Source of the DNA: Microcystis aeruginosa NIES-843
GTDB lineage: Bacteria; Cyanobacteriota; Cyanobacteriia; Cyanobacteriales; Microcystaceae
Assembly (NCBI RefSeq): GCF_000010625.1
Contig: NC_010296.1
Span: forward strand, 3,750,001 to 3,782,000
Direction of reading: 5' to 3'
DNA length: 32,000 nt
A program made the translations under genes and the position numbers. Below are positions 1-24,693 of this stretch, in pieces. The notes under the pieces are model-generated. The model made no database searches. It had not been told where the DNA came from and saw only the letters and a program-made list of their open reading frames with translations. Position 1 is the first letter of the stretch, and each line of letters starts with the position of its first letter.

Positions 1-207
1 CATATAAGTTTCACCGGTGGGTTGAAAATCGCCGGCCACAATTTCGTACATCGAGCCACTGGTGTCAATTAGAAAGACAAAGGTAGTAGAAGGACGGGTT
101 TGAGCGACTTCTTGGGTTGGTCGCAACTTCAGCATAATAAACAGTCGCTGATCTGGAGTATCGGCCGGTAAAAATTCTCGATGGGGGGTAATAGATACGT
201 TAAGCAT
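1..207 (-). CDS. von Willebrand factor type A (vWA) domain protein, N-terminal part only (gene runs off left window edge)
   Basis: Not in the ORF track because it is edge-truncated. The reverse-strand ATG at 207-205 gives MLNVSITPHREFLPADTPDQRLFIMLKLRPTQEVAQTRPSTTFVFLIDTSGSMYEIV. FLIDTSGSM is the vWA MIDAS DxSxS motif. It starts 23 nt downstream of the 231-635 ORF on the same strand. Confidence 0.7.
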   Translation of the reverse strand, partial: MLNVSITPHREFLPADTPDQRLFIMLKLRPTQEVAQTRPSTTFVFLIDTSGSMYEIVAGDFQPTGETYM

Positions 208-230
208 TAAAATTTCCTTCAGAGAATAGG

Positions 231-635
231 TTAAGTGTTGAAAATGTCTTCTAAAGGGGGAAACATTCCCTCCATGGGTTCTATAGCCCCTAAATCGGGG
301 GTAAAAACAGGGGGTAACTCTTGATTTCCTTCGTCTTGGATGTTTTCAAGGTTCGACTCGCTCAGTAGGGGTAAATCTAGGGTCAGGACAGTTTCTCGAT
401 AGCCTTCTCGGATATCTTCGACCCAAGCGGCGATAATTTGATTGAGACGGTGATCGTTGATAGAGCATGAGCTTCTTGCTTGAAAATGTTTTCGGATTGC
501 TTGGCGAATTTCCTTGGTGAAGATAGTTTCAGGATTATTTTCCTGATCGGCGGTTAGATCTAGAGGATAATCATATCTTTCTGGCGAATTTTTCAGGTTA
601 AGAAAGAATTTATAGACTACCATTTGGGCAACCAA
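231..635 (-). CDS. hypothetical acidic protein, middle gene of the vWA operon
   Basis: 134-aa ORF tightly packed between two vWA genes, with gaps of about 8-20 nt and 23 nt. The track start at 635 is TTG, and an ATG at 623 is the likelier start. I recognise no domain. The C-terminus is acidic and Pro-rich. Confidence 0.45.
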   Translation of the reverse strand: MVAQMVVYKFFLNLKNSPERYDYPLDLTADQENNPETIFTKEIRQAIRKHFQARSSCSINDHRLNQIIAAWVEDIREGYRETVLTLDLPLLSESNLENIQDEGNQELPPVFTPDLGAIEPMEGMFPPLEDIFNT

Positions 636-642
636 AATAAGA

Positions 643-2817
643 TTAATGAGTTGATATTATTCGATTGGACGGTTCGGGCGATGTTTTTACCTCCAGCGTA
701 ATCTGTCCAAATTTCCGGCGATCACCATCCTTTAATTGATGCTCTAGTTTTTTCATCCCCTTGGCTTGTCCATAGGACGAGTTATACTGCATGATAATGT
801 TTTCCCCTTTTTGAAAAACCTGAGCCGTGATCGGGGCATAACCCTGTTTTTTGGGTAAGTAAATATTGGCTTCCGAGGAACTGCCCAAAATGATCGGGCG
901 AGAGCCTAATAAAAATTCTCGTTGTTCCGTAGGACTCCAATGCACGATCAGTTTAGCTTGTCGAGTCAGCAGTTCCAAAAGAGCGATCATCATGCCAATA
1001 CAAAAACCCAAAATCGCTGAACCCGCTAAACGTCCGGCCATCTCATTACTCGCTCCAGCTTGCAAAACAAAACCCATTCCTCCCATCGCGCCACCGAGAA
1101 ACCCGCCCAATACCGCCCTGCCGATTTTCAGATTGGGGACAAAACGAGCCATGCCGCCGCCAAGCATTGTCCCTAAAATCGTCCAACCCAGAAGTGGCCC
1201 CCCTGGGGCAAGGGTGGGAATGCTTTGAATGAGAAAACGAGAGACAAGGAGTCCTGAGCTACCGGCAACCAATCCAGCAACGATTCCCCCCACTGTACCG
1301 ATGCTTGTCTCGCCCAGGGAAAGAAGGCGGCGGCGACGTTGATAGAGGTTCTGCCCGACAATTAACGCTAAAGAAGCACCCACAGACAGGATAGCCGTCC
1401 AGCCACCCGTCCGCAAGGCATCATAGATAAATCTAAATTGAGGGGTTTGCAGTTGATTTTTAGGAAGAGATTGGCTCAGTAAAGTGTATAAAATTCCTTG
1501 ATTTTGCTTTTGTTCTCCGATCAGCTGCGAATCATAGATGAGTTTTGCCGCAGATTGAAAGGCTTGGTCAAATTCTCCGGAATTAGCATAGAAGACTTTT
1601 TTATCTTCTCCCGTCAGTTGAGTCAGAAAGTTTTGATCGGCATCTCCTGTTCCGACGGCAATAATATTGATTTTTTGGCTCAGAGCAGTTTGACCGATGT
1701 TTAGGGTCGCCTCTACAATCGGTTGGCGATCTTCTTCTTTCAGGGTTGTTTCAGCGATGGCTTTACCGATGGTGGGGAGTACACTTTCAAATCCTTGTCG
1801 TCCTGCGGCGGTTTCACCGAGTAAGAAGGTTTCTCCAGGTGCGGAGAGTTGCAGTTGTTCAAAAGTAGCGCGATCATCAGGTTGAATGACTAAGTGCAGT
1901 TGAGCAATTTGATTTTCCTTTAAAACATTAGTGGTTGCTTCTAAAGAAGGAATTTCTCGATCGGGTATTAAAGGAGGAGCATCAGTAATCAGCAGTATGA
2001 CTTTGGTTGCATGGGAACGGAAAGGCTGACGGGCAGCTAATGCCAGAGCATCTAAGCTACTTTCTGGCGGATCATTGCCGTTAACCTGTTGAATGCTGCC
2101 GATTTGCTCACTAAAGCGATCGCTATCAGGGGTAAATACAGAACCATCAAAATTGAGAATTTGCGGCTCTTCGCCAAATAAGCGATCGCCAAAAGCGATT
2201 AGGCCTATTTGAGCATCAAGTTTCCGTTTTTTGAGTTCTTGGGCAAAGTTTTGGATGCCTTGTTGTACTCCGGCGATCTCCTCATTCATACTGCTAGTAA
2301 CGTCGAGAACAATCATAATATCAATTTGTTCTGGAGAAGGAGCCGGGGCGGGTTGTCCATCTGTAAACAGCAAGATATGACGATCGGAGCTGCTAGACTC
2401 TAGTTGCTCAATCGCCGTTGCCAGTCCTAAATCCATTCTTGTCCCCCCACCATCAGATAAATTGTCAATGGCTTGATTGAGGGTGGCTAAATCGGAGGTT
2501 AGTCCTGTGCCAATTTGAACCTGACTGCCGAAACCGACCACCGCGAAGCGATTAACCGAGGGGTCCTGTCGCTCGATAAAGGCTTTAGCGGCATTTTTCG
2601 CCTCTTGTAATTTATTGTCATCGTTCATGCTGCCGGAGGTATCAATCAACATTACGACAGATTGAGGATTCTGTTCGACAATCGGCGGACGTTCAGTCAC
2701 CGTGAGAAAAACCTCTCCTAGTGCGATCGCCGCTACCAAACATCCTCCCGCACCACATAATCCAAAAATTAGGAGTTTTCTGAGATTTCGCCTGATCTGG
2801 CCGAATAAGTTCTGCAT
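643..2817 (-). CDS. membrane protein: signal anchor, vWA domain carrying a second vWA-like insert, five Gly-rich TM segments, C-terminal FHA-like domain
   Basis: 724-aa ORF. The N-terminal anchor is RRNLRKLLIFGLCGAGGCLVAAIALG. vWA motifs are VVMLIDTSGSM, GGGTRMD and ILLFTDG. A second vWA-like unit follows (IMIVLDVTSSM, PESSLDAL, ILLITDAPP), then INIIAVGTGDADQNFLTQL, which reads as vWA C-terminal strands. Hydrophobic Gly-rich segments lie at aa ~472-617. The last ~90 aa are FHA-like (ILGSSSEANIYLP...ITAQVF...LKDGDRRKFGQITLEV). Confidence 0.85.
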   Translation of the reverse strand: MQNLFGQIRRNLRKLLIFGLCGAGGCLVAAIALGEVFLTVTERPPIVEQNPQSVVMLIDTSGSMNDDNKLQEAKNAAKAFIERQDPSVNRFAVVGFGSQVQIGTGLTSDLATLNQAIDNLSDGGGTRMDLGLATAIEQLESSSSDRHILLFTDGQPAPAPSPEQIDIMIVLDVTSSMNEEIAGVQQGIQNFAQELKKRKLDAQIGLIAFGDRLFGEEPQILNFDGSVFTPDSDRFSEQIGSIQQVNGNDPPESSLDALALAARQPFRSHATKVILLITDAPPLIPDREIPSLEATTNVLKENQIAQLHLVIQPDDRATFEQLQLSAPGETFLLGETAAGRQGFESVLPTIGKAIAETTLKEEDRQPIVEATLNIGQTALSQKINIIAVGTGDADQNFLTQLTGEDKKVFYANSGEFDQAFQSAAKLIYDSQLIGEQKQNQGILYTLLSQSLPKNQLQTPQFRFIYDALRTGGWTAILSVGASLALIVGQNLYQRRRRLLSLGETSIGTVGGIVAGLVAGSSGLLVSRFLIQSIPTLAPGGPLLGWTILGTMLGGGMARFVPNLKIGRAVLGGFLGGAMGGMGFVLQAGASNEMAGRLAGSAILGFCIGMMIALLELLTRQAKLIVHWSPTEQREFLLGSRPIILGSSSEANIYLPKKQGYAPITAQVFQKGENIIMQYNSSYGQAKGMKKLEHQLKDGDRRKFGQITLEVKTSPEPSNRIISTH

Positions 2818-2820
2818 TTT

Positions 2821-2870
2821 AATTTCGGGGGACTATATTATCTATTCGCCAGAAGACCTGTGATTTATGC
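2821..2870 (-). promoter_or_regulatory. putative promoter/operator of the vWA-FHA gene (copy A of a duplicated upstream block)
   Basis: The 20-bp block agaagacctgtgatttatgc (2851-2870) and tatattat (2834-2841) recur at the same distance from the ATG of the 5157-5381 ORF. On the sense strand an ATAATATA -10-like box lies ~20 nt upstream of the ATG. Confidence 0.35.
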
Positions 2871-2922
2871 CAAAGCTGTCACAAAAGTACACAAAAAAAG
2901 GCATTGCTGAATAAACAGTCAA

Positions 2923-5115
2923 TTAGCGAGTAAATTGTTCAACCTCTACAGGGATTTGTGTTTCTAAACTACTCTTAATTGAGCTTTTTAAAGTAATCAG
3001 TTTTTCGTAACTATTAGTGATCGTAGTTTGTTTAGTAACTTCAGAAGCAATAGCCTCATCAAGCTTGATAGTTTGGGCAATTTGACTGGATATTTCATCT
3101 TGGCAATCATTAAATAGTTCCAGTAACTTTTCTTCCAAATATTCTGCATGATTTTTCAGGCTATACCAAATATTTGTGTTCAACTCTTTGACAAGTTTTT
3201 TTGTGCATTCTTCCAGTTTATCTTTATACATTTTTAGGGCTTGATCTAAACGCTCAGAAAATGTCTGACCACTACAGTCTTTGAGACTCAATCCAATCGT
3301 CTCAAGCTCGTCTCCATACTGATAGAATAAAGCATCAGCTAGACCACTTAATCTCATCGAAATATCTCGTTCACAAAGGTTATCTTCTAGTTTTTTTAAC
3401 ACTTCTTCGGGTAAATAACTTAGGTTAATGGTTTGTAAATCACTGAGAAGTGTACTTAATCGCTGGGTAAAAGGAATATCGACTACCGATATTAATTTTT
3501 TTCTCATCGATGAAGTCAGTTTGATTTTTTCAGTTACAAAATTAGGTAATCTAGATATATGACCATTAATATCTAGTCCTTCACTCAGATAATTTTTCAG
3601 TTCTTTTTTATCTATTTGCATTATTTTTTTGTCAAGTTCTCGAATCACTTCATGGGTGTCAGACTCTTTCCAAAATTGACTATCTTCGTGCGTGCGAATT
3701 TGTTGGGAAAATTCTTTAACTTTTTTCTTCAACTGATCTATAAAAAACCGAGATTGTGAACTAACAGCACGTATTTTCATGTCATCTTGAGGATTGGAGA
3801 TTTGACTATATTGATGATAGGGTTCTTTCAACAATCGCTCTAATTTACGGATAATCTCCAGAAGTTCTTTTCTCGCATCTGCAATAAACTCATCTTTTGC
3901 CTCTTTATTCAAATATTTATATAGAGATTCAAGGAATTGAGAAAAGAGAACAATATCCGGATGATGAAGGAGCAAGTCTTTAGCTTGATCCTTAGAAGGC
4001 TCGTTTTCTAAGCCAATTTTTTTCAAATTGTCAAGATGTCCTCGTAATTTTTGACTTTGGTTAATTGTTCCTTGAGCAATTGTCTTTAACAATAAATAGT
4101 TGAGGGCAGAAGTCTGAAATTTCCGCTCTTCCTTAATGGTAAAATTATAGTCGCCAACCCGTTGATTAAAGCTATTAATAGCTTCTAGTTTGTGAGTATT
4201 ATCCGGTAAATCCCATTGATTAATAACCCAAAATGCCCTTTGAATAATCGTTGGATTCTTCTTATTGATTTCAGCTAAAAATTCTATTTCTTTCCCTTGA
4301 AGAACATTGAAAGGGTTGATACAAACGACAAAAGCTTTTGCTTTCTCTTTGATGTAGTCTTGAGTAAATTCTTCATGGCGTTTATTGTCCACCCCTAGTC
4401 CTGGTAAATCAACCAATACAATGCCGTCCGCAATATTCAAATTTTCTACAAACACTTCAATTTTATCAACATAAATTGCTCCTTCATAGCCTTCTACATA
4501 GTTGCCAAGTTCTGATAGTTGAATTTCTTTTCTTCCTTGATAATTGGAATTTGGATTTGTCAAATTTCTTACAAGCAATCTACTTTTGCCTAAAGCTTGT
4601 TGATCGATAGAACTTCCAGTTTCTGTTTCATATTGTTTAATGGCTTCCTCAATGCTTTGAAAGTGTCTTCCCAGAGGTTCATGAGATTCATTTGACAAAT
4701 TTTTACCAATTTTGTGACCAATTTCAGTTATAAAACTATCGTAAAGTATCCTTTGCGCTTTGTCATCCATAAAGTAAATAAAGGCTTGATCTTTTTCTCC
4801 TTTTTTAACGATAGTGGGAAATGCAGTGGTTGATGTATTGGCTTCAGGGAGAATTTCTCGTCCTAAAATTCCATTAATTATTGTTGATTTTCCCGCCGAA
4901 TAAGAACCGAGAAAAGCGACATGAAATTCTGTTTGTTTCAACTTACTAATCCAGTCTTTTCGTTTTTCAATTGAGGATTTCTCCGTGTCTTTAATAGGTA
5001 GATAAGGAAAAACACTCTCATAAATAGCGAAGTAATCCTGAAACTGTTGAATAGTGGATTGAATTTTTTGAGAATTATCCGGAATTTGTTGTGAGTGGTT
5101 ATTGTGCATGATCAT
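2923..5115 (-). CDS. dynamin-family (bacterial dynamin-like) GTPase
   Basis: 730-aa ORF. GTPase motifs occur in dynamin order: G1 P-loop GSYSAGKST, G3 VLVDLPGLG (DxxG), G4-like VINQWD. A long K/E/L-rich helical C-terminal two-thirds follows. The gene is markedly AT-rich compared with its neighbours. Confidence 0.85.
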   Translation of the reverse strand: MIMHNNHSQQIPDNSQKIQSTIQQFQDYFAIYESVFPYLPIKDTEKSSIEKRKDWISKLKQTEFHVAFLGSYSAGKSTIINGILGREILPEANTSTTAFPTIVKKGEKDQAFIYFMDDKAQRILYDSFITEIGHKIGKNLSNESHEPLGRHFQSIEEAIKQYETETGSSIDQQALGKSRLLVRNLTNPNSNYQGRKEIQLSELGNYVEGYEGAIYVDKIEVFVENLNIADGIVLVDLPGLGVDNKRHEEFTQDYIKEKAKAFVVCINPFNVLQGKEIEFLAEINKKNPTIIQRAFWVINQWDLPDNTHKLEAINSFNQRVGDYNFTIKEERKFQTSALNYLLLKTIAQGTINQSQKLRGHLDNLKKIGLENEPSKDQAKDLLLHHPDIVLFSQFLESLYKYLNKEAKDEFIADARKELLEIIRKLERLLKEPYHQYSQISNPQDDMKIRAVSSQSRFFIDQLKKKVKEFSQQIRTHEDSQFWKESDTHEVIRELDKKIMQIDKKELKNYLSEGLDINGHISRLPNFVTEKIKLTSSMRKKLISVVDIPFTQRLSTLLSDLQTINLSYLPEEVLKKLEDNLCERDISMRLSGLADALFYQYGDELETIGLSLKDCSGQTFSERLDQALKMYKDKLEECTKKLVKELNTNIWYSLKNHAEYLEEKLLELFNDCQDEISSQIAQTIKLDEAIASEVTKQTTITNSYEKLITLKSSIKSSLETQIPVEVEQFTR

Positions 5116-5156
5116 AATGGCAGTCCTCGGAATGATTAATTGTTATATTGGAGTCA

Positions 5157-5381
5157 TCAAAACTGTGGCATTGAGATACAGAGTTTATCCGATAGATGAG
5201 GTAAGTTTTTGCAACTGAAATCCTTACTTCGGCAGGGTTTAATGTATACTTCACCTTTACGAGAAACGCTGTAAACTTCACTCAGTGCGATCTCTGTCAC
5301 CAGACATCCTGCTGCGCCAAATAATCCAAAGATTAGCGGTTTTTTGCGGTTTCGCCTTAGCTGTCTCAATAAGTTCTGCAT
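5157..5381 (-). CDS. small membrane-anchor ORF paralogous to the N-terminus of the 643-2817 product (possible leader gene or gene remnant)
   Basis: MQNLLRQLRRNRKKPLIFGLFGAAGCLVTEIALSEV aligns with MQNLFGQIRRNLRKLLIFGLCGAGGCLVAAIALGEV. Similarity ends after the anchor and no vWA domain follows. The ORF stops 41 nt upstream of the dynamin-like gene. Confidence 0.35.
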   Translation of the reverse strand: MQNLLRQLRRNRKKPLIFGLFGAAGCLVTEIALSEVYSVSRKGEVYIKPCRSKDFSCKNLPHLSDKLCISMPQF

Positions 5382-5384
5382 TTT

Positions 5385-5434
5385 GGTTTTGGAGGTGTAT
5401 ATTATATTTTCGTTAGAAGACCTGTGATTTATGC
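5385..5434 (-). promoter_or_regulatory. putative promoter/operator (copy B of the duplicated upstream block)
   Basis: agaagacctgtgatttatgc at 5415-5434 and tatattat at 5398-5405 sit at the same offsets from the ATG at 5381 as copy A does from the ATG at 2817. The sense strand reads AATATAATATAC. Confidence 0.35.
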
Positions 5435-5756
5435 AGAAGTGTTAAAAATTCCGATAGGAATAAGTTATCAGTCATTCTGACTTTTCCCGTTATCTTTTTA
5501 GTTGAGCGATCCTTTGATTTCCCCCTATCTCGAAGTCCTCTTCTCTCGTCGCTTATTGTCATTAAGACTAGCTTATTGAAAACTGTGGAGAGCTTGAAAC
5601 CCTGATTATGTCATCGTTTTCAGACTTAGCGGGAAAAGTAAGATCGGTCATTGACTTGGCATCGACAAAAGGCTTACCTGCTCTACCTTCTGCCCTTTTT
5701 TAACTTCATCGAACTCACGTTGTCCCCCTGTCAGCTTTCACCGATATTCAGCAAAC

Positions 5757-10669: not shown

Positions 10670-11944
10670 CTAGAATGCTTTTCTATATCTCACCGAAAAG
10701 TAAACCCCTTGTTCTTGCAGTGAATTTCCGGAATTATCGACAGAAACTAACGGAATCCCGTAATCTAAACGAACAGTTAAACCATTAGCCACTAACCAGC
10801 GTAAACCTAATCCTATCCCTCCTAAAGTAGCAGGATCGGGATCAGGAAGTAAATTATTCCATCCAGTCCCCCCCTCAACAAATGAGGTAATTTGCAAGAC
10901 TTCGGGATCTTGAGTGAGGGGAATTCTTAACTCTAATGATCCTAATAAGGCATTATCGGTAACAATTTCGTTTTTTGCATAGCCTCGCACTGTATCAATT
11001 CCTCCTAAGCTGAATTGCTCAATAATCGGTAAGGGATCACCAGCAATTTGAGCGTAAAAACGACCTAATAACAGCCAATTATTACTAAAACGATTAACAA
11101 ACTGAAATTGACCTAACCAGCTAAAAAATTCCTGATTTGGCTCAATATTAACAACTGTGCTATCAAACGCATTGATACCGAAGTTCAATTGAGAACGAGC
11201 AGCAAAAACTTGGTTAGGCGTACGATTGAGCCATTCTTGGGAAAATCTGAGGACGGTTAGGTTGGTTTTCCCATCAATACAGGGTTGAGAGAAACAAAAT
11301 GACACCCCTTCAAGGGAACTACGGTTATTGCGAATATCTAAGTTTAACCCTAATGTCCATTCGGTTTGTAGAGTCCGATAAATCGGTTGACGATATTCAA
11401 CTCCTAATGTCTCTGTTTGGTTACGAATATCGAAGATATTGAATAAGGTTTCGGTAATTTTGCTGTCTGTATTCCAGTAATGTAGTCCAATTCGTCCATC
11501 CATCGGATTAATTGGCAAGTTGTAGTGAAGATTGTATAAATTTAAACCTTCGGTAATAGAATATTCCCCTGAAAATTTATCACCCCATCCTAAGACATTA
11601 CCATGAGATAAGGCGATAGTTCCTTCATAAGAGCCGATATTTGGGGGACGATAGTTATCGGTGCTAACTTCTACACTTAAAGCTTTTGCTTCTTCTAAAT
11701 TAACCAATAAGACACTTTTTCCGTCTGTGCTTCCGGGTGTTAATTCAGCTTGAATCGTTTTAATTAAGGGATCTAATTGTAATAAAGCGAGTCCGTTTTG
11801 TAAGGTTTGCTGATTTAAAGGGGTTCGGGTGACGTTTTCTAAACGAGAGCGAATATAATAATCTGGTTCTTCCGAACTTACACTGTAGAAAAGTCCCCAA
11901 GCTCCCTCTCTGTCCAGCAATGTTCTAAAGTTGATAAATATCAA
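10670..11944 (-). CDS. ShlB/FhaC/HecB-family TpsB outer-membrane transporter, C-terminal fragment (gene split by a MITE)
   Basis: After the junk N-terminus the ORF reads DYYIRSRLENVTRTPLNQQTLQNGLALLQLDPLI (POTRA2), then beta-barrel sequence ending YFSVRYRKAF with a terminal aromatic residue. The first ~26 codons derive from the inserted MITE. Confidence 0.85.
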   Translation of the reverse strand: MIFINFRTLLDREGAWGLFYSVSSEEPDYYIRSRLENVTRTPLNQQTLQNGLALLQLDPLIKTIQAELTPGSTDGKSVLLVNLEEAKALSVEVSTDNYRPPNIGSYEGTIALSHGNVLGWGDKFSGEYSITEGLNLYNLHYNLPINPMDGRIGLHYWNTDSKITETLFNIFDIRNQTETLGVEYRQPIYRTLQTEWTLGLNLDIRNNRSSLEGVSFCFSQPCIDGKTNLTVLRFSQEWLNRTPNQVFAARSQLNFGINAFDSTVVNIEPNQEFFSWLGQFQFVNRFSNNWLLLGRFYAQIAGDPLPIIEQFSLGGIDTVRGYAKNEIVTDNALLGSLELRIPLTQDPEVLQITSFVEGGTGWNNLLPDPDPATLGGIGLGLRWLVANGLTVRLDYGIPLVSVDNSGNSLQEQGVYFSVRYRKAF

Positions 11945-17351: not shown

Positions 17352-18173
17352 GTGCTATTTCTCATAAAACCCTACTCCCGCCTACTTTTCAAGCTTTTTG
17401 TCCTGTACTTAGTGAGAAATGCTATGATTAAAACTTACAAAAAATCCATTACTCTTTCTTTACTCACGTTAGGATTAACCCTTTTTCCTTTAATAGCTGA
17501 TGCAGGATATTCTCCCCCACCTCAACAAGAAAGAGCAGGAGATCATTCTAAATCAATGGGAGTAAGGACAGGCTCTAATTTAACCGAAGAGGATTACCCT
17601 TTAACGATTATTGCACCGCAAGTTTATGTCGGTCAAACGGCATCTGTTACCCCTTCTTTTGTCTGGATAGTGGGTAATCAAAATACGGATTATGAGGTAG
17701 ATTTTCGCTTATTTGAATTTAATGAGCAAGGAAAAATTCAACAAAGGGGAGAAACGTTACGATTTCAACAAAAAGGAGGAATTCATAACTTTTCTTTTCC
17801 CAGTAATCAAACCCCTTTAGAAGTGGGTAAAAAGTATCTTTGGCAAGTCGCTATTCGTCAAAGTCCTGACGTTTGGATGATTCAACGAGCAGAATTTAGA
17901 GTGGTTGAAATGCCCATTTTTTTAAGTCAACAAGTGGCTAATTCACTTCAAAAAACTGAACAAGCAGAACGCTATGCCGAAAATGGGTTATGGTATGATG
18001 CTTTAATGACGAGCTTATCTTCAACCCATCAAGGAGAATTAAACCCTCAAGTTGCTAATTTTATTAAATCTCTCGTAGAATCTGAACATTTAGAGCCATC
18101 TGAAGGGGTTGATGCCAAAATTATTACTCGACGAAATAACACTTTAATAAAACTGGCAGAGTATTACAAATAG
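17352..18173 (+). CDS. DUF928 domain-containing secreted protein
   Basis: The likely start is MIKTYKKSITLSLLTLGLTLFPLIADA (a signal peptide, about 24 codons into the ORF). Blocks PLTIIAPQ..VGQTASVTPSFVW, LEVGKKYLWQV and ERYAENGLWYDAL match my memory of DUF928 conserved blocks. Confidence 0.75.
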   Translation: MLFLIKPYSRLLFKLFVLYLVRNAMIKTYKKSITLSLLTLGLTLFPLIADAGYSPPPQQERAGDHSKSMGVRTGSNLTEEDYPLTIIAPQVYVGQTASVTPSFVWIVGNQNTDYEVDFRLFEFNEQGKIQQRGETLRFQQKGGIHNFSFPSNQTPLEVGKKYLWQVAIRQSPDVWMIQRAEFRVVEMPIFLSQQVANSLQKTEQAERYAENGLWYDALMTSLSSTHQGELNPQVANFIKSLVESEHLEPSEGVDAKIITRRNNTLIKLAEYYK

Positions 18174-18245
18174 GCTTAATTTTTGTGGAAATCCTATGAT
18201 TAAGGCTATAATTAAACTAAGAAATCAACATTTTCAGCTAAAGCC

Positions 18246-18893
18246 ATGCAATTAGCCTTAGAACAAATTATCGTCAATCCCGGTCAACAGTTACTTTTAA
18301 AAGATATTAACTGGCAAAAATTTGAGACAATATTATCAGAATTAGGAGAAAGTCGTGCTTCTCGGTTATCCTACAGTAACGGAATATTAGAAATTATGGT
18401 ACCTTTACCCGAACATGAAAAAGATAAAGAAATCATTAGTTATATGGTTCAGTTTTTGTTAGAAGTACTCAATATTGATTTTGAACCGTTAGGATCAACA
18501 ACATTTAAAAACGAGCGGATGAATCAAGCGGTTGAACCTGATGCCTGTTTTTATATTAAAAACTATCAAGCCGTTATTGGCAAAAATAGACTTAATTTAG
18601 AAAGTGATCCCCCCCCTGATTTAGTCCTAGAAATTGATATTACTTCCCGTACCTATTTAGATAATTATCGACAGTTAGGTGTTCCCGAACTGTGGCGTTA
18701 TACTCAAAGTGGCCTACAGATTAATTTATTACAAGAAGGAGAATATATTGAGTCTTTAAGCAGTCCCAATTTTCCTCAGATACCGATTATTGAATTAATT
18801 AATCAATTTGTTAAACAAAGTCAACAACTGGGGAGAAGTAAAGCCATCAGAAACTTTAAAAATTGGCTGACGGAAAATATAGATAATAGTTGA
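18246..18893 (+). CDS. Uma2 (DUF820) family endonuclease
   Basis: 215-aa ORF with ILEIMVPLPEHE, EPDACFYI, PPDLVLEIDITS and GVPELWRY, the typical Uma2 PD-(D/E)xK-like blocks. Confidence 0.8.
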   Translation: MQLALEQIIVNPGQQLLLKDINWQKFETILSELGESRASRLSYSNGILEIMVPLPEHEKDKEIISYMVQFLLEVLNIDFEPLGSTTFKNERMNQAVEPDACFYIKNYQAVIGKNRLNLESDPPPDLVLEIDITSRTYLDNYRQLGVPELWRYTQSGLQINLLQEGEYIESLSSPNFPQIPIIELINQFVKQSQQLGRSKAIRNFKNWLTENIDNS

Positions 18894-18899
18894 AAAATT

Positions 18900-21716
18900 C
18901 TAACATTTTCGACTAAGATAAAGTCGTCCGTCGAGAGTTGTATAAACCCCTTGCGGTTCAATGATATGATCACCCTTTTTCCAAGGTTGAGCGGGTGTTT
19001 CAGGAATAGGTTGAATGATTTCAGGGAAATAAGAGGGAGTATTCATATCTCCTGGCCGATTTTGGACACCTCCTGAGCCTTTTATGATAAAACTACCCCC
19101 GCGGTTCTGATTAGGTGAAATACAGCTATTAGCTAAGAGTTTTTCAGGGTTAATCAAGAATTCTGGCAACTGAACGATACTATTTTGAATAAAGGTCAAG
19201 TCTGGAATAATAATTGCACCTGAGACTGCACCACTGGCGTTAATATCGACTCTATCGTTACCATCTAGGGTATTAGGATCACTTTCACTCGAAATCCGTT
19301 GATAACCATTACCAAAAAATACAGGCGTATTAAATTGAATGTTGCCACCTCGTCCATCACGAGAAAAAGCTAAAATATCGCTATCATTGAATAATAGGAT
19401 AGAATTAGCTGTTACCGTAATATTTCCGCCACCTCCTGCTCCATTATTTACATTCGTCCGAATATCGCTATCTCCTTGTAATCTGATGTTATCTGCGGTG
19501 AGGGTAATTTCTCCCCCTGCGCCTTGATTGGCATTTGCGGTAATATCACTATTAGTGGCACTGAATAAACCCGTCAGATTAATATTAATATTACCTGCGT
19601 TGCCTTCTCCTTCTGAACGAACGCTAATTTCTGATTGATTTTGTAGATTAAGAGAATTGGCGTTGATTTCGATCAATCCACCCCTAGCTAATGAATTTCT
19701 AGTTACTGCGGTAGATATTTGACTATTTTGATTCATTAATAGCTCATTCCCCACATTCAAGCGAATATTACCTGCATTGCCATCAGCACTTGTACTAGCA
19801 GTAATTCGAGCATTTCGTTCTAAGGATAAGGTATCGCTAATATTTAGCACAGCGTTTCCCGCATTTTTGGGACTAATGGTAGATGTAGAAATCACCGCGC
19901 CATCTGTGAGGGTTAAGCGTCTTGTTTCTATCAAAAGGTTTCCCCCTTCTCCTTGAGATTGAAAATCAAACCCAATGATCCCTGTTGAGGTAAAAATCCC
20001 ACTAGGAAATCTCAGATCAGAGGATATTCCTGTAATGTAAAGGCTATCGCTCGCTCTGAGCAGAATATCTCCCCCTTTTCCTTGATCAAACGTGGCCGCA
20101 GAAATTTGCGCCCCGTTACTTATTCTTAAAGTTTTTGTGTTAATCTCAAGATTTCCTGCATTCCCTCTTCCGAAAGTATCTGTGTAGATAGCACTATCAA
20201 AATCATCTATATTAATGCTTTCTGAAGCATTAATGATTAAATTTCCCCCTTGACCAGAACTGGTTGCATTGAGAATTTCTCCCCCTTCATTAATATTTAA
20301 AATTTGTGTTTCAATGATTAAGTTTCCTGCTGAACCAGTTTGATCTTGACTTGCACCCAAAGAACCCGCTGCAATAAAACCATCATCAATCACATTAACG
20401 CCATTTTGGGCATTAATAATTAAATTTCCCCCCTTTCCTTGTCCAAGGGTAGTGGTTTCAATAAGAGATGCTCCCTGTACCGTTAAATTATTGGTTTTAA
20501 TAATGACACTCCCACTATCACCAAGAGTATCAATAAACGTTCCAGTACCAATAATCGAACCATTGCTCAAACGAATATCCTGCGCTTGAATTGAAATATC
20601 TCCCCCATCTTGGTCAGAAAGTGTTACTGATAAAATGGCAGATTCATTGATTAAAGCGACCTTTTGAGCGGTTAACTTGATCTCGCCCCCTCCTAACCCG
20701 CTACTATTTAGCAAGGCCAGTTGAGATAAGGTAATTTGACCTTGGGATTGACTATCTATCCCTTCATATCCTAGCCTCCATCCCTTAGGAACAGGAGTTA
20801 AGCTGACATTACCCATATTTCTGACGCTTCCGACTTCTATTCTTCCCCCCAAAGCGGTTAAACTTCCACTATTTAAAGTCACATCCCCCCCGACTAGGGC
20901 AATGGTTTGGTTAGGAAAAACCTGTAAACCGACAGGGCGAGTTAAAATATTCTCAATTAGGGTTTTTGTCCCTTCTAAAACTTCATTCGGACCTCCTGTC
21001 ACTTTAGGGATACTTTGAAGAACACCTGTAAGGGATTGTTCGGGGCCTTGTAGGGTAATCGGTTTAGGAGAAGATGAGGTGAAACCTAAACCAATAGGGG
21101 TACTAATGGTTAAAATAGGGGAAGATTGGGTTAAATTTGCACTAAAAACCGTCCCATCTGCAAATTTTATCTGATTAGCGGTTGTGGCGATAAATGACCC
21201 CCCTAAGTTTAACCTCGCATCGGGTCCAAATAAAATCCCATTCGGGTTGAGAAAAAATAAGCTTGCTGTTCCTAAGTCTTGGGGTTGAATTAAACTTGAT
21301 AAGTTAGTATTCGGTAAAAGGGACAAACTCCGTAGATTAATCAGTAAATTATTAATCGTTTCTGCTTTAATAAGCGATAAATTGCCTAAGATATCCGAAG
21401 GATTATTCCCTGTTACCCGAATTAAAATATTATTCACGCCATTGGGATTGGTTAAAATAATCGTCTGCCCTTCACGAATGTTAAAATCCTGAAAACTTTG
21501 AAACAGATTTTCACCTCTTCTTGCACCACCTTGAATCAGTTGTAGCAGTTGATTAAAAGTGATAACGAAAGCACTTTCGATTCCTAAGCTAGTATCTGGA
21601 ATAATTTGAGCAATAGCTGGACTTTTAACTGAAAATAGACTCAAGGAGACTAATAAGCTGACAAGGTTACGAAATTTTAACATTTTTATCCTGAACATTG
21701 TTACATCACTCCTCAA
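18900..21716 (-). CDS. TpsA-type exoprotein: filamentous hemagglutinin N-terminal (TPS) domain plus beta-helix repeats
   Basis: The likely start is the ATG at 21683 (MLKFRNLVSLLVSLSLFSVKSPAIAQ). TPS blocks are GGARRGENLFQSFQDFNI, NILIRVTG and LFFLNPNGILFG. About 600 aa of degenerate G/N/I-rich repeats follow (GGNLIINA, GNAGNLEINT, GNAGNININL, GAGGEITLTA). The C-terminal ~95 aa are bracketed by Cys residues, and I recognise no toxin domain. Confidence 0.9.
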   Translation of the reverse strand: MRSDVTMFRIKMLKFRNLVSLLVSLSLFSVKSPAIAQIIPDTSLGIESAFVITFNQLLQLIQGGARRGENLFQSFQDFNIREGQTIILTNPNGVNNILIRVTGNNPSDILGNLSLIKAETINNLLINLRSLSLLPNTNLSSLIQPQDLGTASLFFLNPNGILFGPDARLNLGGSFIATTANQIKFADGTVFSANLTQSSPILTISTPIGLGFTSSSPKPITLQGPEQSLTGVLQSIPKVTGGPNEVLEGTKTLIENILTRPVGLQVFPNQTIALVGGDVTLNSGSLTALGGRIEVGSVRNMGNVSLTPVPKGWRLGYEGIDSQSQGQITLSQLALLNSSGLGGGEIKLTAQKVALINESAILSVTLSDQDGGDISIQAQDIRLSNGSIIGTGTFIDTLGDSGSVIIKTNNLTVQGASLIETTTLGQGKGGNLIINAQNGVNVIDDGFIAAGSLGASQDQTGSAGNLIIETQILNINEGGEILNATSSGQGGNLIINASESINIDDFDSAIYTDTFGRGNAGNLEINTKTLRISNGAQISAATFDQGKGGDILLRASDSLYITGISSDLRFPSGIFTSTGIIGFDFQSQGEGGNLLIETRRLTLTDGAVISTSTISPKNAGNAVLNISDTLSLERNARITASTSADGNAGNIRLNVGNELLMNQNSQISTAVTRNSLARGGLIEINANSLNLQNQSEISVRSEGEGNAGNININLTGLFSATNSDITANANQGAGGEITLTADNIRLQGDSDIRTNVNNGAGGGGNITVTANSILLFNDSDILAFSRDGRGGNIQFNTPVFFGNGYQRISSESDPNTLDGNDRVDINASGAVSGAIIIPDLTFIQNSIVQLPEFLINPEKLLANSCISPNQNRGGSFIIKGSGGVQNRPGDMNTPSYFPEIIQPIPETPAQPWKKGDHIIEPQGVYTTLDGRLYLSRKC

Positions 21717-21766: not shown

Positions 21767-23296
21767 GTGTTTCATCGCTTTTTCTCCTATTCGCGTCTTT
21801 TGATCTGGCTATTTGTCGCCAGCTTAGTCTTTTTTTCAGGATTAGGCAAAATAACACCCTCTCACTTTATCTTATTTCATGCTCCTTTGATGGCTCAATC
21901 GATGAGTCCTCGTCAATGGGTACAAGAGGGAATTGACGCTTATCAAGCAGGAAACTATCAAGAAGCGGTAAAAATCTGGAAAAAAGCTTTATCTGCTTCC
22001 TCAGAACCCCAAGAAAAGCAAATTATCCTTGAAAACTTAGCAACAGCTTATCAAAAATTAAATCAAAATGAGCAAGTCTTTGAAACCTTAGAAAAGTTAG
22101 AAAAATATGCCATTGAAACAGGAAATAAAGGGAAATTAAGTCAATTATTAACCCAAAAAGCGCAAATTTATCTTAATATTGGTCAACCACAAACAGCGAT
22201 CGCTCTTTTATGTGCTTCAACCGATGAAAAAACCTGTCAACCTAATACCGCCTTAGCTATCAGTCGTCAGATAGAGGATACAAGCATAGAACGTTCAGCA
22301 TTAGGAATTTTAGCAGAAGCTTACCGTTTTAGCGGAAAATATGACCAAAGTATTCAAACCCTAGAAACCGCTCTATCTTTACCCTCTACAGAAGCTCAAA
22401 CATCCTTAAAACAAAGCTTAGGCAATTCTTATACAGCTAGAGGTCAATTATCCCAATTACGGGCAAAATCTGCTGAAAAACAAGATCATAACCGCTCCAA
22501 TACTTTTCAAAAACAAGCGATCTCCGACTATCAACAAGCTACCAAAAATTTCCATGCTAACTTAAATGGATCAGAAGATCCTTTAACAAAACTAGAGAAT
22601 TTATTAAATTTAATTCGTTTATCCTATTATTCTCAAAATTTTCAGATAATTTCTCCCCAACAACGGCAAAATGATTTACAACAGGCGTTAATCTTGCTCC
22701 CTATGGTCCCTCAAAATGTAACAACGGTTTACGCTAGTATTGACTTAGCGAGTCTACCCGCCTTTTCTTTAGCCTTAAGTACCCCTTTAACCCAATGTCC
22801 GACGCAATGGCAACTATCTGACTATCAAAGATTATCCATTCTCGATAATGCTTTAACAATTGCTAAAAATCTTAATAATCCTCGTGTAGAGTCTTTTGCA
22901 TTAGGCGCAATCGGTCATTTTTATGAATGTCTTGGCAGAACAAAAGAAGCCTTAACCCTAACACAGAAAGCGATTTTAGTGGCTAATCAAGATTTAAACA
23001 CAAAAGATGGCTTATATCTTTTGGAATGGCAAAAAGGGCGTATTTTTCAAGCAAAAGGACAATTCAACCTCGCCGTTAACGCCTATCAAAACGCCTATAA
23101 TACTCTTGAAAATATCCGTAGTGACTTATTAACGACTGAAAAAGACGTACAATTGGACTTTCGTGATAGTATTGAACCTATTTATCGTCAACTTGCTCAA
23201 TTAAAGCTACAATTAGCTGATTCTCAAAGTTTATCATCTATACAACAAAAACAAGAATTAAAAGAAGTCCTGGCTCTTCGTTACCCTTTATGCTAA
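21767..23296 (+). CDS. TPR-CHAT protein, N-terminal fragment (signal anchor plus TPR repeats), truncated by IS insertion at 23272
   Basis: It has a GTG start and a hydrophobic N-terminus LLIWLFVASLVFFSGLG. TPR-like repeats include AYQAGNYQEAVKIWKKAL, LAEAYRFSGKYDQSIQTLETAL and GRIFQAKGQFNLAVNAYQNAY. The last 8 codons (ALRYPLC*) are IS sequence. Confidence 0.85.
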   Translation: MFHRFFSYSRLLIWLFVASLVFFSGLGKITPSHFILFHAPLMAQSMSPRQWVQEGIDAYQAGNYQEAVKIWKKALSASSEPQEKQIILENLATAYQKLNQNEQVFETLEKLEKYAIETGNKGKLSQLLTQKAQIYLNIGQPQTAIALLCASTDEKTCQPNTALAISRQIEDTSIERSALGILAEAYRFSGKYDQSIQTLETALSLPSTEAQTSLKQSLGNSYTARGQLSQLRAKSAEKQDHNRSNTFQKQAISDYQQATKNFHANLNGSEDPLTKLENLLNLIRLSYYSQNFQIISPQQRQNDLQQALILLPMVPQNVTTVYASIDLASLPAFSLALSTPLTQCPTQWQLSDYQRLSILDNALTIAKNLNNPRVESFALGAIGHFYECLGRTKEALTLTQKAILVANQDLNTKDGLYLLEWQKGRIFQAKGQFNLAVNAYQNAYNTLENIRSDLLTTEKDVQLDFRDSIEPIYRQLAQLKLQLADSQSLSSIQQKQELKEVLALRYPLC

Positions 23297-24693
23297 ATCA
23301 ACATACAAGATGCCAAGATAACATACTTCTAACCCAAAAATTCCGAAAGTTTCTAAAGCCATAGCCTCTCCGTTTTATTAGTTTAAGTTTATTGTTGATT
23401 CCCTCGACCACCCCATTCGTTGTCCTTCGCTCGAAATAACTAATTATTTCTCCAAACCAGTTTCGGATTGTTTGACAACTCTTGGTAAAAACACTGGAGG
23501 ATTTTGCCAACCATTCCGAGATGGATAGCATTCCCTCTGTCGGATTCTCTGAGGTTTCATAAATCTTTCTAAATTCTTCCTTTAATTCCTGCATCTTTTT
23601 CAAATTTGGGAATTTTTCTTTGATAGCTTCTAGTTTAATTTTTTGGGGTTCCGTTAAATCTTCTTCATTTTTTAACAGGCTATATTTACTTCGCTTTAAA
23701 ACTTCTAGCTTCGCTTCTTTTTCCGCTTTCTGTTTTTTATTTTTCTGCGCTTCTACGGCTCTTTTTTCTGCTCTTCTCTGTTCGTCTAACTCTTGATTAA
23801 TTTGTTTCATTACATGGAATCTATCGGCGACTACTTCGGCCGATGGCATCAATTCTTTCACCAAATTTTTATAAGGCAACCAAAGGTCTATGCTCACTTC
23901 TTCAATTTGCTCTAACACCTCTTTTCCCCAGCCCGTAAGCGTTTCTCTCAACTCTTCTTGTGTTCGCTTCTCTAGAATAGCTATTAGTTTTCCCGTATCT
24001 AAATTTACTAAAACCGCACAGTAATTTTTTTGTCCTTTGACTAGAGCGATTTCATCAATTCCTAGTCTTTTTAATTCCGATAGGTCTGGCTCTGTAATTT
24101 CTTCGGCGATGTCCTCTATCATTCTTTGAATCTCTTCTTCCGTTACGTCATTTATTCGACTAACATTTAAAATATCTCCTTCTTTTAATTGTTCGAGTAT
24201 ATTTGCGGCTAGTCTTTTCGTATAGGTTCGTTTCTTGGCGACAAAATCTAACTCTTCGCTAAAGGGTCTCTGACAATTATCGCACTTAAATTGACGACGA
24301 TTAATTTGTAGGTATACTGGTTGACCTGAGATTGGTAAATCTTTGACTAAATGTCGATGATTTTGGTGGAGTTTATCGCTCTCTAACCCACAACGAGGAC
24401 AGGTTGCTTTTTGATTTTTCGATTCGATTCGGCAAACTATACCGATATTTTCTAGGTGTAGATAGCCTTGAATACAGGTTCCTTTTAGGTTCAAAAATTT
24501 GTCAAGTATCATAAGTAAAATAATCTCGTTTTTGGCTATTATATCAAATCTTAACTCAATTGTCTATCTTTTGGTATTAACCTGTTTGTGCCTTAAGTCC
24601 TTCCCTGTATGGATTTCAGCTACTTTTGAGCGTAGGCGCTCTCATCGAATTTTATTTTAAGTTAATTATTTGCATAACAATTCCCGAAGAGCC
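23272..24693 (-). mobile_element. ISL3-family insertion sequence (1422 bp) with 8-bp target-site duplication
   Basis: The terminal inverted repeats are ggctcttcgttaccctttatgc (23272 onward) and, from 24693 read inward, ggctcttcgggaattgttatgc. GAAGTCCT lies at 23264-23271 and 24694-24701. The element contains a single transposase ORF. Confidence 0.9.
23298..24512 (-). CDS. ISL3-family transposase
   Basis: 404-aa ORF. It has an N-terminal zinc-finger region (CPRCG...CDNC), DEIALVKGQKNY, ADRFHVMK, and the C-terminal TNGVVEGINNKLKLIKRRGYGFRNFRNF typical of ISL3 transposases. Confidence 0.9.
   Translation of the reverse strand: MILDKFLNLKGTCIQGYLHLENIGIVCRIESKNQKATCPRCGLESDKLHQNHRHLVKDLPISGQPVYLQINRRQFKCDNCQRPFSEELDFVAKKRTYTKRLAANILEQLKEGDILNVSRINDVTEEEIQRMIEDIAEEITEPDLSELKRLGIDEIALVKGQKNYCAVLVNLDTGKLIAILEKRTQEELRETLTGWGKEVLEQIEEVSIDLWLPYKNLVKELMPSAEVVADRFHVMKQINQELDEQRRAEKRAVEAQKNKKQKAEKEAKLEVLKRSKYSLLKNEEDLTEPQKIKLEAIKEKFPNLKKMQELKEEFRKIYETSENPTEGMLSISEWLAKSSSVFTKSCQTIRNWFGEIISYFERRTTNGVVEGINNKLKLIKRRGYGFRNFRNFWVRSMLSWHLVC

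Follow-up and report, generated by a model that had tools for sequence, protein, structure and literature searches.

At the left end of the 32,000-nucleotide (nt) stretch of Microcystis aeruginosa NIES-843 DNA analysed here, which we refer to throughout as the window, the minus strand carries a signalling gene cluster that is conserved among cyanobacteria and of which the upstream half falls inside the window. It encodes a membrane protein with von Willebrand factor A (vWA) domains, a small acidic protein that we call p130 and a cytoplasmic vWA protein, followed, past the edge of the window, by a zinc-ribbon-FHA protein, a PP2C phosphatase and a Ser/Thr kinase, and in some lineages a gene for a dynamin-like GTPase has been added to it. 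This anatomical and evolutionary description is well supported. What the cluster does is a separate question: the best explanation that we can offer, to which we would give an even chance, is that it forms a phospho-regulated envelope-sensing module, in which the dynamin serves as an accessory membrane-acting partner, a lineage-specific output that lies outside the core.

A sequence-only reading of the window had described a tight array of five minus-strand open reading frames (ORFs) with recognizable motifs, and all five are found where it had placed them, together with their motifs and the six-transmembrane (TM) topology of the 724-residue protein. In the direction of reading, the array consists of the following genes, which are separated by gaps of 41, 105, 7 and 23 nt:

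5157-5381, minus strand: a 74-codon ORF, identified as a relic by DNA alignment with the 5' end of the 724-residue gene
2923-5115, minus strand: a 730-residue bacterial dynamin-like protein (Pfam, NCBIfam, homologue alignment, PDB profile search), 100% identical to M. aeruginosa NIES-843 MAE_40870
643-2817, minus strand: the 724-residue membrane vWA protein, or vWATM (ORF list, Pfam, alignment, hydropathy)
231-623, minus strand: p130, a small acidic protein of 130 residues (ATG at 623), or of 134 residues if read as 231-635 (TTG at 635)
1-207, minus strand: the 5' end (69 codons) of a gene for an ArnB-like cytoplasmic vWA protein, with translation MLNVS...FLIDTSGSM and the metal-ion-dependent adhesion site (MIDAS) motif DTSGSM

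The array runs on past the window edge, as is seen in near-identical Microcystis contigs (L005-L008 and L097/L098; the labels L001-L119 denote the contigs compared with the window, metagenome contigs included). There the full order is relic, dynamin, 724-residue membrane vWA protein, p130, a 460-residue vWA protein, a 187-residue zinc-ribbon-FHA protein, a 607-residue PP2C and a 705-residue Ser/Thr kinase with TPR repeats. The vWA gene cut by the window edge is recovered in full from L005-L008, with a Pfam VWA match of 1.2e-17 over its 460 residues, and the genes beyond it match Pfam FHA (8.8e-12), PP2C (2.9e-19) and Pkinase (2.2e-44) together with TPR repeats. The earlier proposal of a five-gene dynamin operon as the functional unit gives way to a larger ArnA/ArnB-like vWA-FHA-PP2C-kinase cluster, to which the dynamin is a lineage-specific and dispensable addition.

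The conservation of this core was followed with p130 as the marker of cluster loci, which gave 19 metagenome loci in addition to those collected earlier. The order is near-fixed: a membrane vWA protein of ~490-600 residues, p130, the vWA protein, the zinc-ribbon-FHA protein, PP2C, in some loci a 302-residue protein and a Ser/Thr kinase with an FHA domain, and finally the kinase with TPR repeats (L001, L003, L091, L094-96, L101-L115). The core genes are 50-60% identical across lineages, and most of these loci have no dynamin. Many relatives also share an upstream extension, comprising two to three DO-GTPase-like genes (weak Pfam PF19975/PF19993 matches), genes for a 700-900-residue and a ~375-residue protein, a ~435-490-residue protein with a weak vWA match, one to three ARC6-like_IMS paralogues and a Beta-lactamase2-like gene (L094 1-8200; the upstream halves of L105, L109 and L111; L116 10400-15800; L119 700-9300; L041 12400-22100). 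Ten unannotated genes of this extended set (L094, L116) gave in Pfam only one weak vWA match and one weak DO-GTPase match. None of the extended upstream genes is present in the 32-kb window, where no homologue of the L094/L116 DO-GTPase-like genes was found at E<=1e-5.

Several features of the downstream genes may be recorded beside this order. The 607-residue PP2C (L005 9281-11104) begins with a ~350-residue region that has a weak kinase-like match (Pfam Pkinase 0.0022, residues 177-322) and may be a pseudokinase docking domain, and the Ser/Thr kinase past the window edge starts with a CxxC...CxxC zinc-ribbon-like motif. Between the two lies, in some Microcystis strains and not in others, a gene of ~329 codons (L097 14362-15348 as against L005 11104-11216), which is homologous to the gene for the 302-residue protein at the same position in other cyanobacteria.

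FHA domains read phosphothreonine, and within the cluster the protein best suited to that role is the 187-residue one (L005), encoded directly after the 460-residue vWA protein: it combines a CxxC...CxxC zinc ribbon and a Pro-rich linker with an FHA domain that has the canonical VSRNHA and GS(T/L)NG motifs. To judge from these motifs it is this zinc-ribbon-FHA protein, whose gene lies a little past the window edge, that truly reads phosphothreonine. The gene for this protein, with its canonical phosphothreonine pocket, adjoins that for the cytoplasmic vWA protein, and the first 69 vWA codons fall inside the window. Structures of one system are among the best PDB sequence matches of the two proteins, weak as these are: the vWA protein matches 8s05_A at 1.7e-4, and the zinc-ribbon-FHA protein matches 5a8i_A at 2.8e-5 and 8s05_C at 6e-5, 8s05 being the Sulfolobus ArnA-ArnB complex (chain A is ArnB) and 5a8i being ArnA. 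In the ArnA-ArnB module of Sulfolobus acidocaldarius, a zinc-ribbon-FHA protein is likewise encoded beside a cytoplasmic vWA protein with a C-terminal extension, ArnA binds phosphorylated ArnB (PMC12852372), and motility repression involves the kinases ArnC/ArnD and the phosphatase PP2A, so that Ser/Thr kinases and a phosphatase are partners in both systems (PMC6509490, PMC12852372). The Microcystis cluster differs from its archaeal counterpart in being bacterial, in having PP2C instead of PP2A, in a kinase that bears TPR repeats, in the absence of any visible link to motility genes, and in its additional members, which are p130, the receptor-like membrane vWA protein and, in part of the lineages, a dynamin. 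If the likeness holds, it would extend an archaeal ArnA/ArnB-type module to bloom-forming cyanobacteria.

Wherever both flanks are visible, p130 has the membrane vWA gene on one side and the ArnB-like vWA gene on the other; in L119 and L010 the p130 locus has no membrane vWA gene. Nine homologues were found by word-indexed search. The 130-residue protein is acidic (23 Asp+Glu against 11 Lys+Arg) and has a beta-beta-alpha-alpha-beta domain at its N-terminus, followed by an acidic, disordered tail in which the motif IEPxxGxxPPLxxIF is conserved. It has no significant Pfam match, and we assign it no fold, because its AlphaFold2 (AF2) model is mediocre (predicted local distance difference test score, pLDDT, 70.6 overall and ~80 for residues 1-84) and no significant Foldseek match was obtained (best E 0.13, to beta-grasp-like RBD/GB1 folds).

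The segments of the membrane vWA protein are as follows:

2704-2772, minus strand: TM1 signal anchor (residues 16-38), with four Lys/Arg before it, conserved across the family
2347-2658, minus strand: N-terminal two-thirds of vWA domain 1 (residues 54-157; Pfam VWA and VWA_2), with intact MIDAS (DTSGS...T126...D153)
1768-2325, minus strand: second, integrin-beta-like vWA domain (Pfam VWA_4, residues ~165-350), nested in vWA domain 1
1528-1707, minus strand: C-terminal third of vWA domain 1 (residues 371-430; INIIAVGTGDAD...FLTQLTG), from BLASTP to paralogue P0020 and alignment
964-1404, minus strand: TM2-TM6 (residues 472-618), a Gly-rich bundle, from hydropathy
676-960, minus strand: cytoplasmic FHA-fold domain of degenerate type (residues ~620-714), from the AF2 model and Foldseek

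vWA domains are MIDAS-dependent protein-binding modules, and the first of the two here (Pfam VWA 1.4e-28, 100.8 bits, above the gathering score; nested VWA_4 64.7 bits) has a complete metal site, the MIDAS residues D59, S61, S63, T126 and D153 being invariant in the family alignment. Hydropathy and charge (the positive-inside rule) reproduce the receptor-like topology proposed earlier: the anchor is N-in, ~430 vWA residues lie outside, and five further TM segments, of which TM4 and TM5 are weakly hydrophobic and whose RRRR loop is inside, return the C-terminal domain to the cytoplasm. Other cyanobacteria have shorter paralogues, type A of ~490 residues with a classical vWA domain and type B of ~515 residues with an integrin-beta-like VWA_4 domain, both of which keep the N-terminal anchor and C-terminal module of the 724-residue protein. 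The Microcystis protein has VWA_4 nested within a classical vWA domain; the nested segment matches type B paralogues (P0010) and its flanks match type A (P0020). The TM2-TM6 bundle contains 21% Gly, 11 GxxxG motifs and 25 small-xxx-small motifs. This Gly pattern, we note separately, resembles that of glycine-zipper channel or pore-forming segments.

The C-terminal domain is, on its predicted structure, a degenerate FHA fold. The AF2 model of residues 618-724 has a pLDDT of 91.3, and all of the top 50 Foldseek matches in the PDB are FHA domains (best E 7e-6, TM-score 0.63-0.72). The fold is recovered by predicted structure only, every sequence-profile test being negative: no Pfam FHA or Yop-YscD_cpl match at E<=0.1, no FHA domain in the PDB at E<=10 with a 43-sequence profile, and an hhalign probability of 1% against the true FHA domain of the cluster. 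The family consensus reads LGSS...GYPPxTAKI with a helix in place of the S-x-N-G loop, and the canonical phosphothreonine-binding residues (the Gly-Arg, Ser-x-x-His and Asn-Gly loops) are absent from it. The sole hhalign register sets ITAQVF on NHAEIY, with Ser and His replaced; this is a low-confidence alignment, so the loss is argued mainly from the absence of the motifs. The FHA-like assignment of the sequence-only reading is thus upheld as to fold and lost as to profile match and phosphothreonine reading: with the Arg, Ser, His and Asn binders missing, the latter is therefore not to be assumed. A comparable arrangement is known from the YscD/EscD proteins of type III secretion, in which a cytoplasmic-side FHA beta-sandwich, at the N-terminus, is joined to a TM segment; YscD (4a0e, 4d9v) is among the Foldseek matches, and we take its FHA domain also to lack the canonical phosphothreonine pocket. 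Here, unlike in YscD/EscD, the FHA fold follows a Gly-rich bundle of five TM segments at the C-terminal end, occurs together with periplasmic vWA domains and has no secretion-system context. In a library of 1.84 billion proteins, the module of five Gly-rich TM segments and degenerate FHA fold recurs in 1066 representative clusters (E<=1e-3), and no Pfam model covers it.

Bacterial dynamin-like proteins remodel or repair membranes, and some have been linked to phage tolerance. The 730-residue protein belongs to the dynamin family: the assignment made in the sequence-only reading holds in Pfam (Dynamin_N, 3.8e-21, 76.3 bits against a cut-off of 27), in NCBIfam (DynA, 1.3e-21) and in a PDB search with a profile of 24 homologues, which returned SynDLP at 4e-14, Cj-DLP at 6e-10, Nostoc BDLP at 2e-9 and mitofusins. 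Across the 24 homologues, GSYSAGKST, T97 (G2), DLPG and NQWD vary little or not at all, the strictly invariant positions being the P-loop G/K/S, the G2 Thr, DLPG and N..W. The GTPase domain spans approximately residues 60-305 (window 4201-4938) and is followed by ~420 residues, and Kyte-Doolittle values stay below 1.4 in every 19-residue stretch of the protein, which thus shows no obvious TM segment or hydrophobic paddle. With the known bacterial dynamin-like proteins (SynDLP Slr0869, Nostoc BDLP, Campylobacter DLP1/2 and Bacillus subtilis DynA; PMC5827413, PMC10104851) it shares Dynamin_N with G1-G4 and a typical size of ~700 residues; it differs in that the similarity is restricted to the GTPase domain and in that neither paddle nor TM segment is detected. 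Its gene stands without a second bacterial dynamin-like protein (BDLP) gene in tandem and has none of the KGK, HSR1 or DnaK neighbours of the six cyanobacterial BDLP clades of Jilly et al. 2018. The physiological roles and regulators of cyanobacterial dynamin-like proteins are largely unknown (PMC5827413), and the cluster offers a testable lead on the control of one clade of them, with a kinase/PP2C-controlled vWA-FHA switch and a transmembrane vWA protein as candidate partners.

This clade, defined as cyanobacterial homologues of at least 48% identity, was sampled in seven lineages, and in all seven the dynamin gene stands beside part of the cluster or its DO-GTPase-like extension, arranged differently each time:

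M. aeruginosa window and L009 (82% identity): dynamin upstream of the membrane vWA gene
Crocosphaera L010 (58% identity): dynamin between the ArnB-like and ArnA-like genes
L117 (55% identity): dynamin after the TPR-repeat kinase gene
L116: dynamin beside a decayed membrane vWA gene, DO-GTPase-like genes and the TPR-repeat kinase gene
L118 and Microcystis sp. LSC13-02 (L041): a paralogous dynamin beside an ARC6-IMS-like and beta-lactamase-like pair that flanks the cluster elsewhere
L119 (48% identity): dynamin divergent from DO-GTPase-like genes ... p130 and vWA

Linkage to the cluster in related genomes, on which the earlier interpretation had been staked, is therefore found. The dynamin is probably linked in function to the cluster, since repeated re-association in varied positions is classically taken as the mark of such a link.

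How the dynamin came to its place in Microcystis can be read from the DNA around it, where two copies of one segment are preserved:

2709-2885, minus strand: copy A of the ~177-nt duplicated segment, holding a promoter-like match, the 5' untranslated region and the first ~37 codons of the 724-residue gene
5272-5448, minus strand: copy B (~78% identical to copy A), ahead of the dynamin gene

The two copies correspond over ~60 nt ahead of the start codon as well as over the first ~37 codons. Copy A has a sigma70-like match, ATCACA-16-GATAAT, at 2864-2837, and copy B a better one, ATCACA-16-TATAAT, at 5428-5401. The 74-codon ORF had been taken for a small anchor component of the operon. The alignment identifies it instead as the relic 5' end of a paralogue of the 724-residue gene, a diverged duplicate of which only the first ~37-45 codons are homologous or conserved. 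The alternative of a real small membrane protein was rejected: the L009 version ends at codon 45, which shows that the later part of the 74-codon frame is not conserved as coding, and the head together with its upstream DNA duplicates the 724-residue gene. In L001-L003 a short paralogue stands directly upstream of the long membrane vWA gene, at the position where Microcystis has the relic and the dynamin. Most simply read, the body of the upstream paralogue gave way to the dynamin gene, to which the promoter-like site and first codons passed; the dynamin and the 724-residue gene would then each stand behind a copy of one promoter-like site because the dynamin took the paralogue's place.

The L009 locus (JGI 3300078835 contig) is a mosaic. 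Its nucleotide sequence is 90% identical to window 2687-5473 over the relic, the dynamin gene and the opening ~130 nt of the membrane vWA gene, and the TM/FHA-fold module is 68% identical to window 686-1431, and yet the vWA ectodomain is entirely different, with extra vWA repeats in a protein of 880 rather than 724 residues. This suggests, from the alignment, that the periplasmic vWA ectodomain undergoes cassette-like turnover or exchange.

From these parts a mechanistic chain can be assembled that we regard as plausible. The periplasmic MIDAS vWA domains would bind an envelope ligand, and the signal would reach the FHA-fold domain in the cytoplasm by way of the Gly-rich TM bundle. If ArnA/ArnB is a guide, how far the ArnB-like vWA protein is phosphorylated would be governed by the kinase and PP2C, and the zinc-ribbon-FHA protein would then bind that vWA protein. 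The acidic tail of p130 would be a candidate MIDAS ligand because of the established MIDAS-glutamate principle, of which PMC6509490 gives a summary. The membrane vWA protein would offer periplasmic MIDAS sites together with a cytoplasmic FHA-fold docking surface, and the assembled membrane-proximal complex would recruit or license soluble dynamin, which would there remodel or seal the membrane, be it cytoplasmic or thylakoid. Recruitment to the complex would be expected because the dynamin has no anchor of its own, and the transmembrane vWA protein could supply the one that is missing.

A number of points weigh against this explanation. Every functional step of the chain is one that we infer; the likeness to ArnA/ArnB is a weak one (E 1e-4 to 1e-5); in the membrane protein, the FHA-fold domain lacks phosphothreonine-binding residues; and the promoter call is a consensus match only, of a kind found 18 times against 13.4 expected. 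Most p130-marked clusters have no dynamin in their available flanks. Conversely, no cluster gene is found within 10 kb of ~30 deeper dynamin orthologues in one-genome-per-species contigs, among them those of Nostoc, Methylococcaceae, Desulfobacterales and Saprospiraceae. Finally, a syntenic and ~96% identical Microcystis (L099 VYKX01000323.1, L100 VYLT01000157.1) has a 4.45-kb deletion of window ~844-5298, which fuses the relic ORF at codon ~27 with the final ~67 codons of the 724-residue gene, removing the dynamin gene and most of the membrane vWA gene and leaving p130 through the kinase intact. The dynamin/membrane-vWA pair is dispensable, since it has been deleted in this natural strain. 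Microcystis thus provides natural variants with and without the pair that are directly comparable.

The clusters without dynamin and the orthologues without cluster would also fit a reading in which the dynamin is a passenger, an AT-rich gene whose arrival disrupted a redundant paralogue, leaving the relic, with no functional tie to its neighbours. Its GC content of 0.335, compared with 0.45-0.48 for the adjacent membrane vWA gene, points the same way. We consider this quite unlikely: chance is an improbable cause of the repeated association in seven of seven lineages with changing position and orientation, and other parts of the window (for example 18001-19000, GC 0.338) are as AT-rich as the dynamin gene, for which reason recent horizontal insertion on the strength of GC alone was likewise rejected.

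The accessory-partner explanation has next to be set against one in which the cluster regulates envelope growth or cell division. Cell-wall synthesis in actinobacteria is controlled by Hanks kinase/PP2C/FHA sets (PknB/PstP/FhaA/FhaB), and in the ARC6-PDV-ARC5 logic a cytosolic dynamin is positioned by a cue that comes from the intermembrane or periplasmic side. The ARC6-IMS-like, beta-lactamase or penicillin-binding-protein-like, membrane vWA and kinase proteins would coordinate peptidoglycan or septum events with cytoplasmic dynamin, loosely like the ARC6-PDV-ARC5(DRP5B) axis of chloroplast division. What speaks for this, besides the textbook precedent of the actinobacterial sets, is that ARC6-like_IMS (PF13355) genes adjoin the cluster in six loci (L001, L003, L094, L105, L109, L111), usually with a Beta-lactamase2-like or VanY gene (L109 has ARC6-IMS paralogues only), and that they also adjoin the paralogous dynamin in L118/L041. 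None of these ARC6-IMS or beta-lactamase-like envelope genes lies in the window, however, the natural deletion of dynamin and membrane vWA argues against an essential division role, the ARC6-IMS assignment consists of precomputed Pfam matches, and the chloroplast analogy is tentative; we judge the explanation improbable. More improbable still is its most far-reaching combination with the chain set out above, namely a hitherto undescribed cyanobacterial transmembrane pathway in which a vWA receptor with a phospho-independent FHA fold, an ArnA/ArnB-like switch and small DO-GTPase-like proteins would recruit soluble dynamin to a defined membrane site and which, taken with the ARC6-IMS lineages, would be a prokaryotic counterpart of the ARC6-PDV-ARC5 logic. 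The ingredients are all of known kinds: BDLPs, an ArnA/ArnB-like switch, vWA/PP2C/kinase triads and DO-GTPase-centred systems. In the literature searched we found no description of a vWA/FHA/PP2C/kinase neighbourhood of a dynamin-like protein, of a dynamin-like GTPase being drawn repeatedly into a cluster of this kind, of the receptor-like family that joins membrane vWA, five TM segments and a degenerate FHA fold, or of a gene replacement that retains the promoter.

A last alternative, possible though doubtful, is that of an anti-phage or conflict system. DynA of Bacillus is a lysis-delaying effector, and a dynamin could act in this manner, or the glycine-zipper TM bundle as a perforating one, at the end of a system of the nucleoside-triphosphate-dependent thresholded kind (Kaur, Burroughs, Iyer, Aravind 2020), in which the vWA ectodomain would sense the invader and the kinase, PP2C, FHA and vWA proteins would form the threshold switch. 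The DO-GTPase-like genes that relatives join to the cluster fit this picture, as does the resemblance to the GAP1-N2 DO-GTPase systems of Kaur et al. 2020 (PMC7159879), which have extracellular-vWA membrane proteins and, as a third theme, a kinase with PP2C and a standalone vWA protein. TerY-P-like vWA/PP2C/kinase triads can moreover be stand-alone defence systems, according to PMC11090510. Also in its favour are the strain-level presence and absence of dynamin and membrane vWA, the swapping of the vWA ectodomain between loci whose flanking dynamin sequences are 90% identical, the 11 GxxxG motifs of the TM bundle and a match of the PP2C to the PADLOC candidate PDC-M21C at 9e-11.

Set against these, a PADLOC scan of all window and downstream proteins returned nothing specific, the matches being a LeoA match of the dynamin (1.3e-10) that spans the P-loop only (residues 37-85), generic kinase matches and PDC-M21C, with none for either vWA protein, p130 or the FHA protein, for which reason the cluster is not filed as a known defence system. 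Neither a full-length LeoA match nor a LeoB/C-like neighbour, as LeoABC would have, was found. The core has a fixed gene order and 50-60% identity and no variable enzymatic effector, the neighbours of the array in the window are housekeeping genes (HlyD-family, GUN4-like, pyrB) and do not form a defence island, and the DO-GTPase genes are absent from the 32 kb. Kaur et al. 2020 (PMC7159879) never mention dynamin and list the theme for actinobacteria only. The invader sensing put forward in the sequence-only reading accordingly finds no direct support, either in specific PADLOC matches or in gene context.

The two closest defence-related systems show how far the likeness goes. With the TerY-P triad (Anantharaman et al. 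2012; Gao et al. 2020; both as given in PMC11090510) the cluster shares a vWA protein, PP2C and a Hanks kinase in a proposed phosphorylation switch; it differs in a kinase that ends in TPR repeats, not in a zinc ribbon or OB fold, and in the FHA proteins, p130 and membrane vWA protein as extra fixed members, and neither vWA protein matches any model in the PADLOC copy used, in which the presence of TerY-P models is unconfirmed. With the GAP1-N2 DO-GTPase systems (PMC7159879) the clusters of the relatives share two to three contiguous DO-GTPase-like genes, a kinase/PP2C/vWA set, an extracellular-vWA membrane protein and a predicted site of action near the membrane; they differ in that their DO-GTPase Pfam matches are weak or faint, and no GAP1 family or domain was detected in them with Pfam.

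Two further regions of the window, apart from the cluster, may be recorded. The first (window 21767-25842) has the appearance of a TPR-CHAT gene, or of two such genes side by side, into which an insertion sequence has come:

21767-23296, plus strand: TPR-repeat ORF
23298-24512, minus strand, opposite to its neighbours: ISL3-family transposase gene
24670-25842, plus strand: CHAT-domain ORF

The second holds two-partner-secretion (TPS) components, with a gene for a sensor protein between them:

10670-11944, minus strand: ShlB/FhaC-type transporter of 424 residues
15278-17299, plus strand: CHASE2-domain sensor protein of 673 residues
18900-21716, minus strand: exoprotein of 938 residues with a TPS domain

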